A DNA stretch of 28,110 nucleotides from Bacteriovoracia bacterium (GTDB lineage: Bacteria > Bdellovibrionota > Bacteriovoracia > Bacteriovoracales > Bacteriovoracaceae): NCBI GenBank assembly GCA_046570105.1, contig JBKHVI010000039.1, positions 1 through 28,110 of the forward strand, written 5' to 3'. A program made the position numbers. Positions 6,001-12,000 of the stretch are shown piece after piece; position 1 is the stretch's first letter; every line of letters begins with the position of its first letter.

Positions 6001-9000
6001 TTTTATGCGTAAGCTAAACCAAGTTCTTCGTTGATACGAACTGTACGCTGAAGCTCCTCAATAAGCGCCTTCAGACGATTATCCATTTTCACCCGTTGAC
6101 CATTGAGTCTGACTTTTTGTCCTTTGACGTAAGCTGCTAGCTGCTCACGCAACTCTTGCGCTGATGTTTGATATTCAAGTGCAAGTTCATCGAGTTTGTT
6201 TTTGAAACGATAATCTTTCTCCATCAAGTACTTCACCTTGCGACTCATCTCTTCTTTCAAAGTGACGGTGGTGTATGAGTGGCGTACACGGGCCAATTTA
6301 AACTTGGCGAGTGTCCAAATATAGGCCCAACCAATATCAAACTCATACCACTTGTGGCGGAATGAACATGAACGTTGATGAGCATGGTGATTATTGTGAT
6401 CGAGTTCACCGCAGATAATGAAGTTGAGTGGAAAAATAAATCCGATATTACGGCTGTTATCTCCCGAAGCGTGATTGCGGTAGCCCCAAGTATGGGCAAG
6501 AGCATTGACTCCACCGACAGCAAACAAAGGCGAAATAAGAATATTAGTGAATAGAAGCACAAGACCAATCTGACTGCCTAACAACACCATCAAAACCATC
6601 GTGAACATATAGGGTCCGAAAAATGGATTGCGGCTAATGAATGCTTCAAGAGTATTGAGTTTAATTGTTTTACGGATTTTTAAAACCTCAGGGTCAGACT
6701 TTGCTTTAGTGTAATCGAATACTCCTAACAAGAAGACGCGCCAAAATCCTTTCTTCACCGGTGAATGAGGATCTTTATCGGTATCACTCCAAGCATGATG
6801 GTAGATATGTACTGAGACCCAATCTGGTTTTGACATGCTGGTGATACACCACAGCCACACTTGCATAATCATATCGAGATAAGGATTAAACTCGACACCC
6901 TTGTGCGTATGAGCGCGATGGAACGACAAGCTCATACAAGTAATGGTCAAATGGGCGATAAGGATTGTGTAACCGGCCCACCAGAGCCAAGTGTATGAAT
7001 TAAACATTGAACCGATTAACCCACCTTCGCCAAGGTAGCGTGTGATGACAAAATCGCCGGTGAAATAAGAGATGACAAAAAAACCAATTAGCAGAAGGGC
7101 TTGCATACGTATTCCTTGACTCATGGCCCCCGTCAACAGAGGCACTAGCTCATTCTCCCATGGCCATTTACATAGACACAAGGGCCTAACTAAATCTTGG
7201 CGAAATCCGTGATTTTGTGTTGGTCAGGAATCTGAATAGAGGCACTTTCGGCCGAAGGTGCCAGAGATTGTGGCGCTCTGAGGTAACACAGGCCGCATGA
7301 GATACAACGAGAAACATTGATATTCCAGGCCTTCTTTCTGTCTTGAAAAACCGCTCCAGTAGGACAAATGGCCTCTGCTTCTAGCATTTCAGACTCAATG
7401 ATTTTTGGTTGAAGAATGGGTGGCCGACGAAACTGGCGCCGGGCAATTGAAGCAGTACTTTTCAATCGCAAGCGATCGACACCAACAGCACGAGCGAAAC
7501 CACCCGACAGGCGTGCCCAGGCCAAAATCATTCTGAGCTGGGCCCACTTCCACCAAGGTAATTCTGTGTAATGTTCGCGTTGCAAAATCATAAACTACCG
7601 ATCCAAGCTGCTCGCTTCCAAATGAAGCGAACTAAGTGAGAGAGCTAAATCTGATACTGGGCAATTTTTCAAAAAGTCAGGTAAGGCCTGCGCTAACAGT
7701 GTGGAATTGGTTTTAATTTTAAGTGACCAAATTTTCAAATCATGAGGGTGAAGCACAACATGAAAACCCAGCTCGCCACTTGGTCCTTCAATGGCAGTGT
7801 ACTGTGCACTCCATGCTCGATCAGCTTTTTGGTACCACTCATTCCACTGAGGCAAATGGGCAACACCGGCATTCAATTCTGTGAGGCCTGGCAAATCAAT
7901 CATGACACTTCCAAGAGGAAGATTATCCAACACCTGCCACAAAATTCTCAGCGACTGATGACATTCTTCAATTAAAATCAACGTTCGATCATGAGCATGT
8001 CCATGCATACCAACAGGAACATCGAAATCAATATCTTGATAAAAATAAAAAGGACGCGATTTGCGTAGATCAAAGTTAACGCCTGTGGCACGAAGAGCAG
8101 GCCCGGTGAGTCCTGCTTCAAGAGCGACTTGCGCAGTGATACCCGCCATTTTTAAACGACGACGCGCCAAAGGATGATGCGTGACCATACGGCGATAAAA
8201 GACCAGCGCTCCATCAATACCTTTCAAAAGCGACATGGCCTCTTGCACCCAGCCCGCCGGTAGATCCATCGCTAGTCCACCAAAATGCGACAAGTGAGTC
8301 GCCACTCGTGAGCCAGCATAGAATTCAAACAAAGTACGTAGTCTTTCTCTAATCTCGCGACACAACAGCACGGCTTCATCTACACCTAAGTCTTCTGCAA
8401 CATTCGCCATGATCGACATATGATGGGAAATGCGACTGAGTTCCATAAAAATCATGCGAACGGCCTGCGCACGTTCTGGAATACGCCATAGAAAATAATC
8501 TTCTAGTGTCTTAGCCCATGCGACATTTACCAAAGGGGCCGCGGTAGGCATTAGACCATCAAGCAAAGGTTGAAATTTAAGAGGAGTGCAGCTCTGTGCT
8601 TTCTCTTCCCAACCACGCTTCCAGTAGCCACTTTGTAACCACGTATTCTGAATTTTTCCCTCATGCGCTTCAATCGCCAGAGCGAATTGATGACGAGTCA
8701 GTGGATGGTTCACATCGAAGAGATACCATTGATTGAGTTCTTCCGGATAAGGCGCTTCACTCAAATTTGGATTTGTTTTGAAATGCGGAAGTCCCAGCGG
8801 TTGAGTATCTTGAGGCATCGCTCCCAACTGTTGAAGTGCCTCAATTTCTAAGCGAGCAGCACCGCTAAACCATTCCAAGACAGAAGGAACACTTTCTCCC
8901 TCACCTAACAACAAATGCACTTGGAGGCGCTGATGAGCTTCTAAGTGAAACAAGTGATATGTCACATCCCAACGTAGTTGCCCGTGATGCTTTTCGTAAT

Positions 9001-12000
9001 GAGGATGACCCACAGTCGATATGACGGCAATGTCATTCATTAAACTAAAGCCCATATCGTGACGTAAGATACCCATGGTGCGAGCGAAATCACGACAGGT
9101 GATATGAACATGATGGTGATCATGATCATAGTGATAAGCACTCCCAAATGAGCCCTTATAAAAATCTTTTCTTTCACGAAAAATCGCCCAATCAAACACG
9201 TGGCATCTCCATAACTGTTTTGACCGCAGCGATTATCTCTTGAGGAGCAGGAGGATGACCCGGCAAAATACCTTGCACTTTGAAACTTGAGAGCTCTCCA
9301 CGAGGTCCAATAATATGGCCCTCGCGATTGATTTCAATTTCGGCACCAATGGCAATAAAGCGAGCATCAAAGCGTGCCTTTTGAACCCATGCTTCCAACA
9401 TCGGCCAACTCAAAAGAGTAATTGGGCCATGAATCGCCATCACATGAGCTTCAGAAGGATCTATAACGCACTTTATTTGTGGAATTGTTTTCGAATAGGC
9501 AGATGTTGATAAGCTATCCCACTCTGTAAGACCCAGACCTTGGCCAAAAACCGCCACACGAACAATTCGCTGAGTCGCCCAGTTATCTAAAATTCGCAAG
9601 AATGGAACGACAAGTGCTTTCATATTAAAAAATATATTCCGAATCTTTGAAGTCATTAGGGTTAAAGCGTTCTTTCCACACAATATCCTCAGGGATTTCA
9701 CTCCATCTTTCTCTGATGGCCTGATTGCGGTCTTTGTCACACGCGAAGGAGCGCTCAGGAACACTCACCCAGGCTTCAAGCTTGGCATGCGACCCATGTG
9801 CATGTTCATCCCAACCTACATAGCGCCAGCGTTCTCCAGAAGCTCCTCTTAAGGACCTCAAAAAAGGCGGCAAGTACTTCATCGCATGATCGATGTCTTT
9901 CACTGAACAACTGGGTAAGTAACGAAGCAAATCTTCCATTGCTTCTTTTCCGACATTCGACATTCCCCAAGTTCTTCCAGTGCAACTATAGACCCAGCCA
10001 TTCTTATGCAAACGATTGAACATTGAAATCCAATGAATGAATTTCGTTTTCTCTTGATTCTCATTAGGGTTGCCGGGATAAACGACTCGTGAACAGGTAT
10101 AGAGTTCGCTATGATATTTGCGTAAGAAACTTCCGAGACGTTGGTTGAAATAGGTGGGCTTCTTGGCTTTTTTTAAGACATCCAAGGCTTTTGCATGAGC
10201 TCGTGCTTCATCACTGGTTTTAACAGGGCGATCAAGAATCGACTCGGCACCTACCTCATTCCATAATAAATCATAGACTCTGCTGCAAGAGCGCTTCATG
10301 GCAACGAGCTCTTTAGTCGTCAAGACGACTGAACGCTTTTGCATAAAATCCATGGCACTTTGCAAATCAACTAACTGCCCTATTTTCACAGCAGGATATT
10401 GTTTGTCAGCCACTTGATTTCTGCCATTGAGATTTTCTAATTGATTACGAACACTGTCCCAGTTCACGACTTCCGCAAGCTGTTTCGTAGTCTTGATGTT
10501 TTTCCATTTTGCTTCACGATCATAAACACCCACCAACACCATCCGGCCTGTCCATTCTTTGAGACCAGAACATTTTCCGCTAGGACAAATTTGTTCCACT
10601 ACCGCACCGACGATACGCGCTCGATAGAGAACCGGCTGCTCAATGCTAAGAATCGATTCTCCACCAAAAACAATGATGCGTTGGGGGCGATTGAGTTGAT
10701 CAAAATGCCGTGGCACCACACCAGTAGAAAAACTGGTGATACCAGAGATCTTACCGTCTTTTTTCCAGACATCAGGCTGAGAGCACATGAAATGGGAAAA
10801 GTGGCGCTGGCCGGTAGGAACATCTAAGTCATAGGCCTCTTCTGTGCCAGCGATGTGCAAAGGGAGAAAATTAATATGACTCATGGCCGGATTGAGTTCA
10901 GGAAGTGGATCGTAGAACAAGTGGGGCTGAGGCTGGCCATGCCAGTCGGCCAAACGAATATTCTTGTCCTGCGCAAACCACACGGGTTCAATGCGCGAAA
11001 GAATCAAGCTGTCGTCGGGCCCTGCACTTTTACGCCACGAGCAGCCGCCTTGCGCCAGCAAAATAACTACGAGTAAAAATTGACAATAACTCTTCATCAT
11101 AACACGATGTTGTATCCTGTGCCCGGGTGGTGGAATGGTAGACACAAGGGATTTAAAATCCCTCGGCATGCTAAACACATCCGTACGAGTTCGAGTCTCG
11201 TCCTGGGCACCATTTTTTTTCTACTTCAAATATCCTAACAACTTAGATTGAAAACACCAGCACTCTGAGAGTCGTTGTACTAGTTTTGTACTACGATCCC
11301 TCTGCCGTAAAGTTTACGCTGCTTACGACACGCTTGAGAAAGCTATTGTGAAGGTGGGCATACTTTTTTGTCGTCATCTCCACGCTGCTATGCCCAAGAA
11401 TTTTTGAAAGCCCGTATAAATCACCCTCAGGGGCCATGCAGACGTTAGAGGCAAATGTTCCGCGCAGATCATGAAAGCGAATCTTACTCACTCCTGCGCG
11501 CTTAATAGCTCTCGTGAATTCTCGCTCGGAGATATGTTGCACATCCAAAATGCTGCCGCACTTGGTGGCGAAGACATACTCCCTATGGCGCTTCTCCAGC
11601 TGAAGAGTTTTAAGTGCAACTTCGGTGGCGTGATTCATGGGGACGTAACGAAAGCTCGAACATGTTTTGGTAGATTCTCTTAGACCGTGGCGATCTCTGA
11701 CCCTTGAGACTTCAATCAGTCGATTCGTAAAATCAACTTTGTCCCACTTAAGCCCTCCTAACTCACCTCTTCTCATTCCTGTATTAAGTGCCACCACCCA
11801 AAGTTCATAAAGCTCATCCTGCATATTAGCTTTTAAGAACTTCGCAATTTCATCCGGCATCCAATACTTTGCTGCTCGCGGAGGAACTTTCTCTAGCTCT
11901 AAGTTTCTAAATGGACTCTTATCAATCACATCCCATTTCACAGCATCGTTTAAAATACCCTTGAGAACACACAAGGCCATATTGATCCCTTTCGGAGATT

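Follow-up and report, generated by a model that had tools for sequence, protein, structure and literature searches.

A second complex I, apparently dead as an enzyme and still encoded by intact, conserved genes, was found in a member of the Bacteriovoracia (genome code G000, assembly 88% complete, sister genome G153), which suggests that the empty shell serves another job. Three of its genes, encoding degenerate forms of NuoB, fused NuoC-NuoD and NuoI, lie in the window, the 28,110-nucleotide stretch of DNA that was analysed and whose numbering is that of contig C39. These proteins are homologous to complex I subunits and have lost catalytic residues, and their reading frames are intact and under purifying selection; the locus vanishes together with a degenerate membrane-arm locus, and both persist in genomes in which a working complex I was looked for and not found. 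We infer that the proteins are made and assembled into a membrane-anchored shell that would neither reduce quinone nor pump, and we place about even confidence in the retention of this redox-dead and pump-dead shell for a structural role.

The relic genes of the window

The genome-wide survey's note had described the three genes as intact, Bdellovibrio-type genes whose NuoB had lost the N2-binding cysteines, and both statements hold: all three lie on the minus strand without internal stops (Table 1), and the alignment of NuoB shows none of the four ligand positions to be kept. The nuoI gene starts 3 bases after nuoCD. A scan for promoters and terminators gave a signal no different from that of shuffled sequences.

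Table 1. Genes at and around the relic locus, in window coordinates
Feature	Position	Strand	Description
aat	5363..6034	+	Leu/Phe-tRNA protein transferase; convergent; family-wide downstream locus marker
Desaturase	6003..7181	-	DesA-like fatty acid desaturase; next gene after relic nuoI
Relic nuoI	7190..7591	-	133 aa; N-terminal membrane-surface helix kept
Relic nuoCD	7595..9199	-	534 aa; fused NuoC-NuoD, Bdellovibrio type
Relic nuoB	9192..9623	-	143 aa, ATG at 9623; NuoB/PSST fold, 0 of 4 N2 cysteine ligands
UP	9625..11178	-	Conserved lipoprotein-like gene without a known family; upstream of relic nuoB by 1 base

The relic NuoCD matches PF00346 and PF00329. No Pfam or NCBIfam model matches the relic NuoB; its structural model (pLDDT 88.7, from an input alignment that included intact NuoB rows) finds complex I NuoB/PSST chains as its top Foldseek matches, with a best E of 6e-8. 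The relic NuoI is identified from alignment and position. In the NuoD part, Arg and Pro occupy the aligned columns of the quinone-site His and Tyr (H38 and Y87 in Thermus); the Arg adjacent to N2 is also replaced, and the structural core is retained. Four of the eight cysteines of NuoI remain, forming one complete [4Fe-4S] ligand set, and all four of the other cluster are gone; the kept cluster is read as N6b and the lost one as N6a, following PMC9783039 in part. The relic of G000 thereby lacks NuoE, NuoF and NuoG of the active 14-subunit enzyme, as well as N2, the quinone site, two NuoI clusters, the pumping residues and the three antiporter-like subunits of active complex I with 14 or 11 subunits.

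The NuoD tree separates the copy at this locus from the headless NuoD and joins it, at support 1.0, to fused NuoCD of Bdellovibrio type, and a recent duplication of the canonical copy is rejected by both the NuoH and NuoD trees. A Group 4 [NiFe] hydrogenase or related complex was also considered and rejected, as the best models for the large subunit are those of NuoD, the protein nests with Bdellovibrio-type NuoCD (in a tree without hydrogenase rows), and its C-terminus carries the NuoD-type DR and lacks the terminal CxxC. The neighbouring genes were likewise considered. UP, which serves as a locus marker, remains in genomes that deleted the relic and is thereby ruled out as a subunit of the complex; its matches in the Atlas are pyrophosphatases at 0.87, a lead only. 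The desaturase was rejected as the cause of relic retention, since its adjacency to nuoI (g1, g36, g64, g10 and g26) is limited to one clade and the gene survives relic loss in G033 and G026.

A second membrane arm and the fate of NADH oxidation

The survey's note had spoken of a relic second Q-module with a kept non-redox role; the relic state, the purifying selection and the non-redox role are supported, but the unit goes beyond a Q-module and amounts to an entire second complex I. Immediately after the canonical nuoN, at C31:4161-6508, lie five degenerate membrane genes, encoding NuoH, NuoJ and NuoK relics, a putative NuoA relic and one 212-aa membrane protein, and this set is the remains of the membrane arm that matches the relic of the window. 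The second arm is intact in G018, G019 and G046, together with an intact nuoB-CD-E-F-G-I operon, and elsewhere is graded to the unrecognisable; in many genomes the degenerate arm escapes PF00146 and PF00361. NuoH copies of the second arm are placed outside the first-arm clade of their tree, and the intact ones sit next to Bdellovibrio-type NuoH.

Assignment of the five genes draws on several kinds of evidence. The five best structural matches to the model of the relic NuoH, which was built from only 7 genus-level rows, are all chains of the NuoH/ND1 family; the best Z is 10.1 (226 residues aligned, rmsd 6.1), below the 13 that the tool advises for helical bundles. Foldseek returned no match for it at E 0.001, with NuoH/ND1 chains recurring among the weak rows, and PF00146 is its best named family in the Atlas (0.88, 23% of members), again a lead only. 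The NuoJ and NuoK relics are linked through a chain of profiles, at 75% and 27% to intermediates that match intact copies at 84% and 91%, respectively. Direct profile comparison at genus level detected neither NuoA, NuoH nor the 212-aa protein, and NuoA and the latter are tentatively assigned by position, size and hydrophobicity. Taken together, the relic NuoB, NuoCD, NuoI and NuoH are homologues of the complex I superfamily, the structural Z of NuoH being moderate. Complex prediction of NuoH on NuoB, NuoD and NuoI gave a weak signal (0.46 against 0.08 for the best control; runs sharing 56% or more of their contacts; partner pLDDT 69 or higher), which likeness to solved complex I may explain; the mark used is attained by 116 of the 157 solved pairs and by 2 of the 215 mismatched ones.

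The canonical set of G000 (C13 and C31) is of the headless, 11-subunit type with all motifs intact. The statement that complex I lacks its NADH module stands for the C13, C31 and C39 loci, all of which are without nuoEFG, and for the near-closed relatives G003, G009 and G028, and is not secure for the 88% complete G000. In that assembly, NuoF was not found, and no NuoE, NuoF or NuoG profile matched below E 0.01. As the note had indicated, NuoF is patchy in the family (61 of 151 genomes, 46 of 110 near-complete ones), and genus mates carry a separate nuo operon: NuoF is present in G153, whose NuoCD is 97% identical, and in a further 5 of 10 genus mates, and wherever fetched it lies in a third, complete-type operon. 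This operon follows purK-purE in G135 and G006, and contig C81 of G000 ends inside purE; the other site (G151, G152) is assembled in G000 and occupied by the nqr tail. A search of G153 for the first gene of the third operon did not find it. Owing to the sister's third operon and the one known site that falls in an assembly gap, the absence of nuoEFG from G000 is unproven. Na+-NQR is present, as had been reported, with nqrA-D on C100 and its tail on C89. None of the 10 genomes whose locus retains intact nuoEF(G) yielded NqrA, which suggests that Na+-NQR took over NADH oxidation.

Decay series and proposed course of events

Every stage that the note had listed is seen at the same UP-aat locus, from the full nuoB-CD-E-F-G-I operon through loss of nuoEFG to a Cys-less NuoB. 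The quinone-site His and Tyr disappear once nuoEFG is gone, ahead of the N2 cysteines. The relatives offer a natural, ordered series of which complex I parts can be lost, and when. Independent-loss counts are rough, because FastTree was used for the trees, with a backbone drawn from two flanking genes and rooted at the midpoint; one copy without a flanking locus marker (G128:C441) was dropped from the residue tally, and the NuoB of G040 is cut by the end of the stretch or contig.

In the course proposed here, the ancestor of the family would have possessed two complex I paralogues, namely a headless one (nuoBCDI and nuoAHJKLMN-1) and an NADH-oxidising one of Bdellovibrio type (nuoB-CD-E-F-G-I and nuoAHJKLMN-2, in tandem behind the first arm). 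With Na+-NQR or an acquired third nuo operon oxidising NADH, the Bdellovibrio-type enzyme may have lost its function, and decay would have proceeded repeatedly from nuoEFG, the quinone site and the pumping residues to N2, and then to N6a and the antiporter subunits, leaving in G000 the three proteins of the window and the five of C31. Selection may keep the shell as a scaffold in the membrane or as a platform on which a putative partner docks, which is the least secure step, and the last Fe-S cluster would stabilise the fold and not carry electrons. Laboratory precedent is described in the available part of PMC8042128, where complex I without N2 can assemble and then cannot reduce quinone, a state of fold and assembly without catalysis to which the relic can be likened. 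The broader proposal is tentative: repeatedly and family-wide, a whole complex I would have been turned into a membrane machine outside respiration, a pseudo-complex I comprising 8 to 11 subunits, whose own function is needed even in species that have no working complex I. If true, it would reveal that complex I has another, non-respiratory role formerly masked by catalysis.

Explanations for retention and relation to known systems

The structural role has to be weighed against a role as a membrane-tethered ferredoxin or redox sensor, where the dead Q-module and arm would hold NuoI, and its [4Fe-4S] cluster or clusters would hand electrons to a partner (the desaturase, for example) or inform it of the redox or iron state. 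Of the catalytic features, the NuoI cysteines persist longest: in 10 genera all eight remain beside a cysteine-less NuoB, and there a redox role is favoured. A full single-cluster set occurs in g1, g36, g64 and, separately, G053. However, only two CxxC pairs remain in g31, g50 and G023, the NuoI of G135 is reduced to the N-terminal helix and a fragment (with an equally long open reading frame in G151), and the adjacent desaturase, as described above, is confined to one clade and outlives the relic. This explanation is considered improbable, without being negligible.

Entrenchment without new benefit is slightly less probable still; here, the loss of one subunit would leave a harmful orphan, for example an uncapped and leaky arm, and decay would ratchet onward until the whole locus is deleted. 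A hand tally of the two loci speaks for the structural role: second arms accompany Q genes in 51 of 56 genomes, and the 6 genomes whose Q locus is gone are without the arm as well. Entrenchment accords with the finding that an arm without Q genes was seen in none of the genomes examined (0 of 6 deletions) and that the reverse occurs at the arm site of G036, G129, G064 and G098, which also weighs against the structural role. Against that role, too, the system is dispensable in several lineages, given the 6 clean deletions and the NuoCD-only remnants in G022 and G066. All stages down to complete loss exist, as entrenchment would have it. Divergence is fast, with relics of different genera 44-57% identical where the canonical arm shows 99-100%, and this also fits slow decay. 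Nevertheless, a single deletion would harmlessly remove the arm, yet it is present across dozens of genera, and in Peredibacter-type genomes, whose examined members are armless, the Q genes show dN/dS of about 0.05-0.19. Whether a hidden non-catalytic role or entrenchment applies can be tested in predators that are cultured and harmless.

A role as regulator, assembly factor or dummy module of the working complex I is unlikely as a general explanation. The relic arm stands in tandem and co-oriented with the canonical one, and in g36 and g64 the Q relic could dock on working arms only. However, both relic loci persist in 9 genomes, several of them 96-99% complete, in which canonical NuoB, NuoD and NuoH were not found, and in 7 of these the relic arm directly follows mfd; the relic is therefore more than a helper of complex I.

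Neutral pseudogenes, kept open to avoid polarity on TPR-serS and the desaturase, can scarcely account for the data. Two genes past the relic arm comes serS, which is essential, but polarity selects against stops and not against amino acid changes, and downstream genes fare well where the relic is deleted. All 8 genes are without internal stops and have dN/dS of 0.007-0.083 (NG86, pairwise only; distant pairs are saturated and were not relied on). The values given by the note against the sister were reproduced at 0.030 for nuoB, 0.032 for nuoCD, 0.083 for nuoI, and 0.043 and 0.022 for the flanks; the five membrane genes range from 0.007 to 0.040, the canonical arm from 0.006 to 0.033. In a pair of genomes where canonical complex I was not found, relic dN/dS is 0.022-0.059 at dS 0.20-0.29. 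An oxidoreductase or ion transporter that remains active with non-canonical residues is hardly credible either: relatives at earlier stages retain N2, both NuoI clusters and full-length NuoL, NuoM and NuoN, but G000 lacks, besides the N2 ligands and quinone-site residues, both NuoK glutamates, the NuoA acidic pair, the NuoH acidic loop and any full-length antiporter subunit in its second arm. Pumping residues are gone from all aligned second arms except those of G018, G019, G046 and, in part, G029, in an alignment that is rough for the most degenerate rows.

The shell proposed here descends directly, by gene order, fused NuoCD and tree position, from the split complex I of Bdellovibrio type (nuoB-CD-E-F-G-I and nuoAHJKLMN behind mfd), which is intact in g18, g19, g46 and g40; a split operon in Bdellovibrio is mentioned in PMC4758237. 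Compared with this ancestor, the relic has a shrunken arm and one NuoI cluster, and nuoEFG, N2, the quinone site and the pumping residues are missing. The headless, 11-subunit complex I-like enzymes treated in the part of PMC3144371 at hand resemble the relic and the canonical set of G000 in lacking the N-module, but keep N2, the quinone site and the pumps and are taken as active, whereas the relic lost all three. Two divergent paralogues per genome, as here, are known from genomes with two complex I isozymes (PMC4453560, in the part covered), whose table scores complete sets and in that part holds no Bdellovibrionota row or degenerate copy.

In pseudoenzyme subunits, fold and assembly persist and catalysis is absent; in contrast to these and to N2-less laboratory mutants, a whole multi-subunit complex encoded at two loci is here naturally dead and conserved. 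The complex I derivatives of the cited papers retain electron transfer or ion transport, whereas the relic lost both and is still under purifying selection. Literature searches found no description of a degenerate second complex I; such clusters may be depicted in figure S2 of PMC4758237 and in the supplementary material of PMC13147790. In annotation, relic genes risk being counted as complex I, or missed. For Peredibacter HCB2-198, of the same family, the available text of PMC13147790 reports nuoAHJKLMN at a common site, together with a complete nuo operon that was probably acquired, with no mention in that text of a degenerate nuoB-CD-I or arm; its closed record (L160) carries the Q relic.

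Lost residues and order of decay at the Q-module locus

The relic is a second complex I, dead as an enzyme, that is under selection and divided between two loci. In the genome studied here (G000; 3.0 Mb in 131 contigs, 88% complete, with C39 as the window contig), its Q-module genes overlap or abut one another, flanked on one side by UP, a lipoprotein-like gene, and on the other by a desaturase and then the marker gene aat. Relative to the canonical copies, all four N2 cysteines are missing from the relic NuoB, and in the relic NuoD the His and Tyr of the quinone site are gone, as is the N2-adjacent Arg. 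Of the two NuoI clusters, N6a is the entry from NuoG. The cysteines retained in the relic NuoI are the final one of motif 1 and three of motif 2, counted from its start; together they make one full cluster set, and nothing of the other set is left. Because PMC9783039 assigns the final cysteine in motif 2 to N6a, the lost cluster is N6a and the kept one is read as N6b. Among 47 NuoCD proteins of the locus, 23 columns are invariant, with the catalytic His, Tyr and Arg lying outside them, and from the alignment these columns may be read as a structural core. According to PMC8042128, complex I lacking N2 can still assemble, then without quinone reduction.

Coordinates of the relic and neighbouring features in G000
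Feature	Position	Strand	Length	Basis or content
Relic nuoB, first gene	window, within 7190-9623	minus		no family match; structure model is NuoB
Relic nuoCD, middle gene	window, within 7190-9623	minus		family matches to fused NuoCD
Relic nuoI, last gene	window, within 7190-9623	minus		shortened NuoI
UP	window 9625-11178			carries cysteine, no known family; in 127 of 151 family genomes
Likely mobile island	window 11291-19921			directly upstream of UP; integrase, helix-turn-helix genes, 1135-aa N6-methyltransferase-like gene, AbiEi/AbiEii pair; GC partly 37-40%
Another fatty acid desaturase	window 23519-24643			close to globin and two histidine kinases
First arm ORF	C31:6218-6508		96 aa	position only
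Second arm ORF, relic NuoH	C31:5452-6225		257 aa	structural matches to NuoH/ND1
Third arm ORF	C31:5037-5477		146 aa	profile chain to NuoJ
Fourth arm ORF	C31:4796-5050		84 aa	profile chain to NuoK
Fifth arm ORF	C31:4161-4799		212 aa	position only
PF00361 protein and adjoining protein	C22:35809-39949		602 aa and 784 aa	

Across 81 genomes of 43 genera, NuoB at the locus has its full set of four cysteines in 41 genomes, is cysteine-less in 34 (16 genera), carries one to three in 5 and is undetected in 1. The NuoD His and Tyr are both kept in only 10 of these genomes, every one with intact nuoEF(G). NuoI still has eight cysteines in the majority, among them 10 genera in which NuoB is without any. 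In a backbone tree of 75 loci built from flanking genes, the large clade containing G000 is wholly cysteine-less in NuoB (support 0.95), and about five further lineages have lost these cysteines separately.

In genus g11 (L125, L081, L085), the locus still holds nuoE, nuoF and nuoG, degenerate yet intact; NuoF is matched at E 1e-8 to 1e-11, and dN/dS is 0.11 for nuoF and 0.18 for nuoG at near-saturated dS; G039 retains nuoF and nuoG there, and G042 nuoG alone. NuoI is down to two CxxC pairs with about 17-18 residues between them, resembling a zinc ribbon, in L031, L073, L077 and L093 (g31, g50 and, separately, G023). For the g19 pair L075/L076, dS is 0.7-0.9 in the intact nuo genes versus 2.9 in the UP flank, possibly through operon recombination or strong codon bias.

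The second membrane arm and selection

The second Q-module described in the genome-wide survey's note is real, and its extent proved larger, since matching membrane-arm remains, five coupled hydrophobic ORFs, lie directly behind canonical nuoN on C31. At the same place the second arm is intact in G018, G019 and G046, whose UP-aat locus holds intact B-CD-E-F-G-I; it is intermediate and recognisable in G029, G025, G041, G048 and G056, and at the far end of the intermediates stand seven unrecognisable ORFs with matching order and roughly matching sizes. The checked pumping residues are absent from every aligned second arm except the intact ones.

The best five structural matches of the relic NuoH, modelled from 7 genus-level rows (pLDDT 66.5), are NuoH/ND1-family chains (Z 10.1 to 7.2, 218-231 residues aligned), and Foldseek gave no match to the model at E 0.001. 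Complex prediction of the relic NuoH on the relic NuoB, NuoD and NuoI scored 0.46 versus 0.08 for the best control, a pass below 0.60 being weak, with contact agreement of at least 56% and partner pLDDT of at least 69. The mark is reached by 116 of 157 solved versus 2 of 215 mismatched pairs, and resemblance to solved complex I may account for the predicted docking.

The low dN/dS previously noted against a sister was reproduced with G153 (nuoB 0.030, nuoCD 0.032 and nuoI 0.083 at dS 0.3-0.7; flanking genes 0.043 and 0.022), and the Q genes of the close pair G116/G051 lie at 0.022-0.059. Relic arm genes show 0.007-0.040, similar to the 0.006-0.033 of the canonical arm. In other genera, the relics diverge between species far faster than the canonical arm does. 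In the pairs L228/L229, L183/L220 and L222/L223, relic arm dS exceeds that of the adjoining canonical arm (0.9-2.6 versus 0.06-0.6 in g11) with lengths kept, which may reflect weak codon bias or allele exchange.

Co-loss, persistence and possible role

Co-loss and INDEPENDENCE were followed in 20 more loci fetched via the UP marker, comprising 11 with NuoCD, 6 clean deletions and 3 ambiguous cases; the arm is also absent in all six Q-locus deletion genomes. In a hand count of 56 Q-gene genomes with a readable arm site, excluding sites cut off after one or two ORFs, at least three arm ORFs were present in 51, a single one in 1 and none in 4 (G036, G129, G064, G098). Everything is deleted in six lineages, and NuoCD alone is kept in some others.

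Both relic loci are kept in nine genomes (G010, G074, G051, G060, G095, G083, G109, G056, G022) in which canonical NuoD, canonical NuoB and intact NuoH were not found, G056 giving a weak NuoH match only; the relic is therefore independent of a working complex I. PF00361 has no match in six of the nine and matches located elsewhere in the other three, and the relic arm directly follows mfd in seven.

The relic complex probably assembles, and its role would be that of a structural scaffold, a proposal whose chances we consider evenly balanced. Service as a redox relay, which would accord with the retention of all eight NuoI cysteines in ten genera, is unlikely, the NuoI ferredoxin domain being nearly gone in the genus mate G135; retention through entrenchment is improbable and ranks after it. 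No description of a degenerate second complex I was found in literature lying mostly outside subscription journals and taken without supplements, and none is mentioned in the available parts of PMC13147790, PMC4758237, PMC12361115, PMC12827227, PMC4014512, PMC9783039, PMC8042128 and PMC4453560 (including section 6 of the last).

Origin and NADH oxidation

The NuoD and NuoH trees resolve two old paralogues apart; closed genomes of family f7, taken to be Bdellovibrio-like, hold the fused-CD type only, with nuoEFG and a single arm behind mfd, and two intact arms occur in tandem in four other families. The relic therefore derives from the NADH-oxidising paralogue, and the same evidence rules out a recent duplicate. 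In closed G044 (L287, L288), one diverged arm with a short L and additional hydrophobic ORFs accompanies a diverged headless nuoBCDI, the canonical copy possibly also decaying. Two further families of Bdellovibrionota show additional weak NuoD-like matches, in G192 and G188 (L266, L269, L272), which could represent separate relics or genes resembling those of hydrogenases.

In G000, contigs C13 and C31 hold the canonical nuoB-C-D-I and nuoAHJKLMN, respectively, with nuoEFG absent at both loci; to this extent the claim that complex I lacks the NADH module stood. Genome-wide the claim is insecure, since 6 of the 10 genus mates, the sister G153 among them, have NuoF. The third operon is a separate complete nuo operon of some relatives, and one of its known sites coincides with a contig end in G000. 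Of the 151 family genomes, 116 have NqrA; it was not detected in any of the 10 with the intact nuoEF(G) form at the locus, these genomes being related rather than independent. Na+-NQR is noted for Bacteriovorax marinus in PMC4014512. Across genomes, the third nuo operon and the nqr operon share one chromosomal slot (L314, L315, L325, L132, L131; C100 and C89 of G000), as if two NADH dehydrogenases were exchanged there. The adjoining proteins on C22 resemble a DabA/DabB carbon transporter pair.
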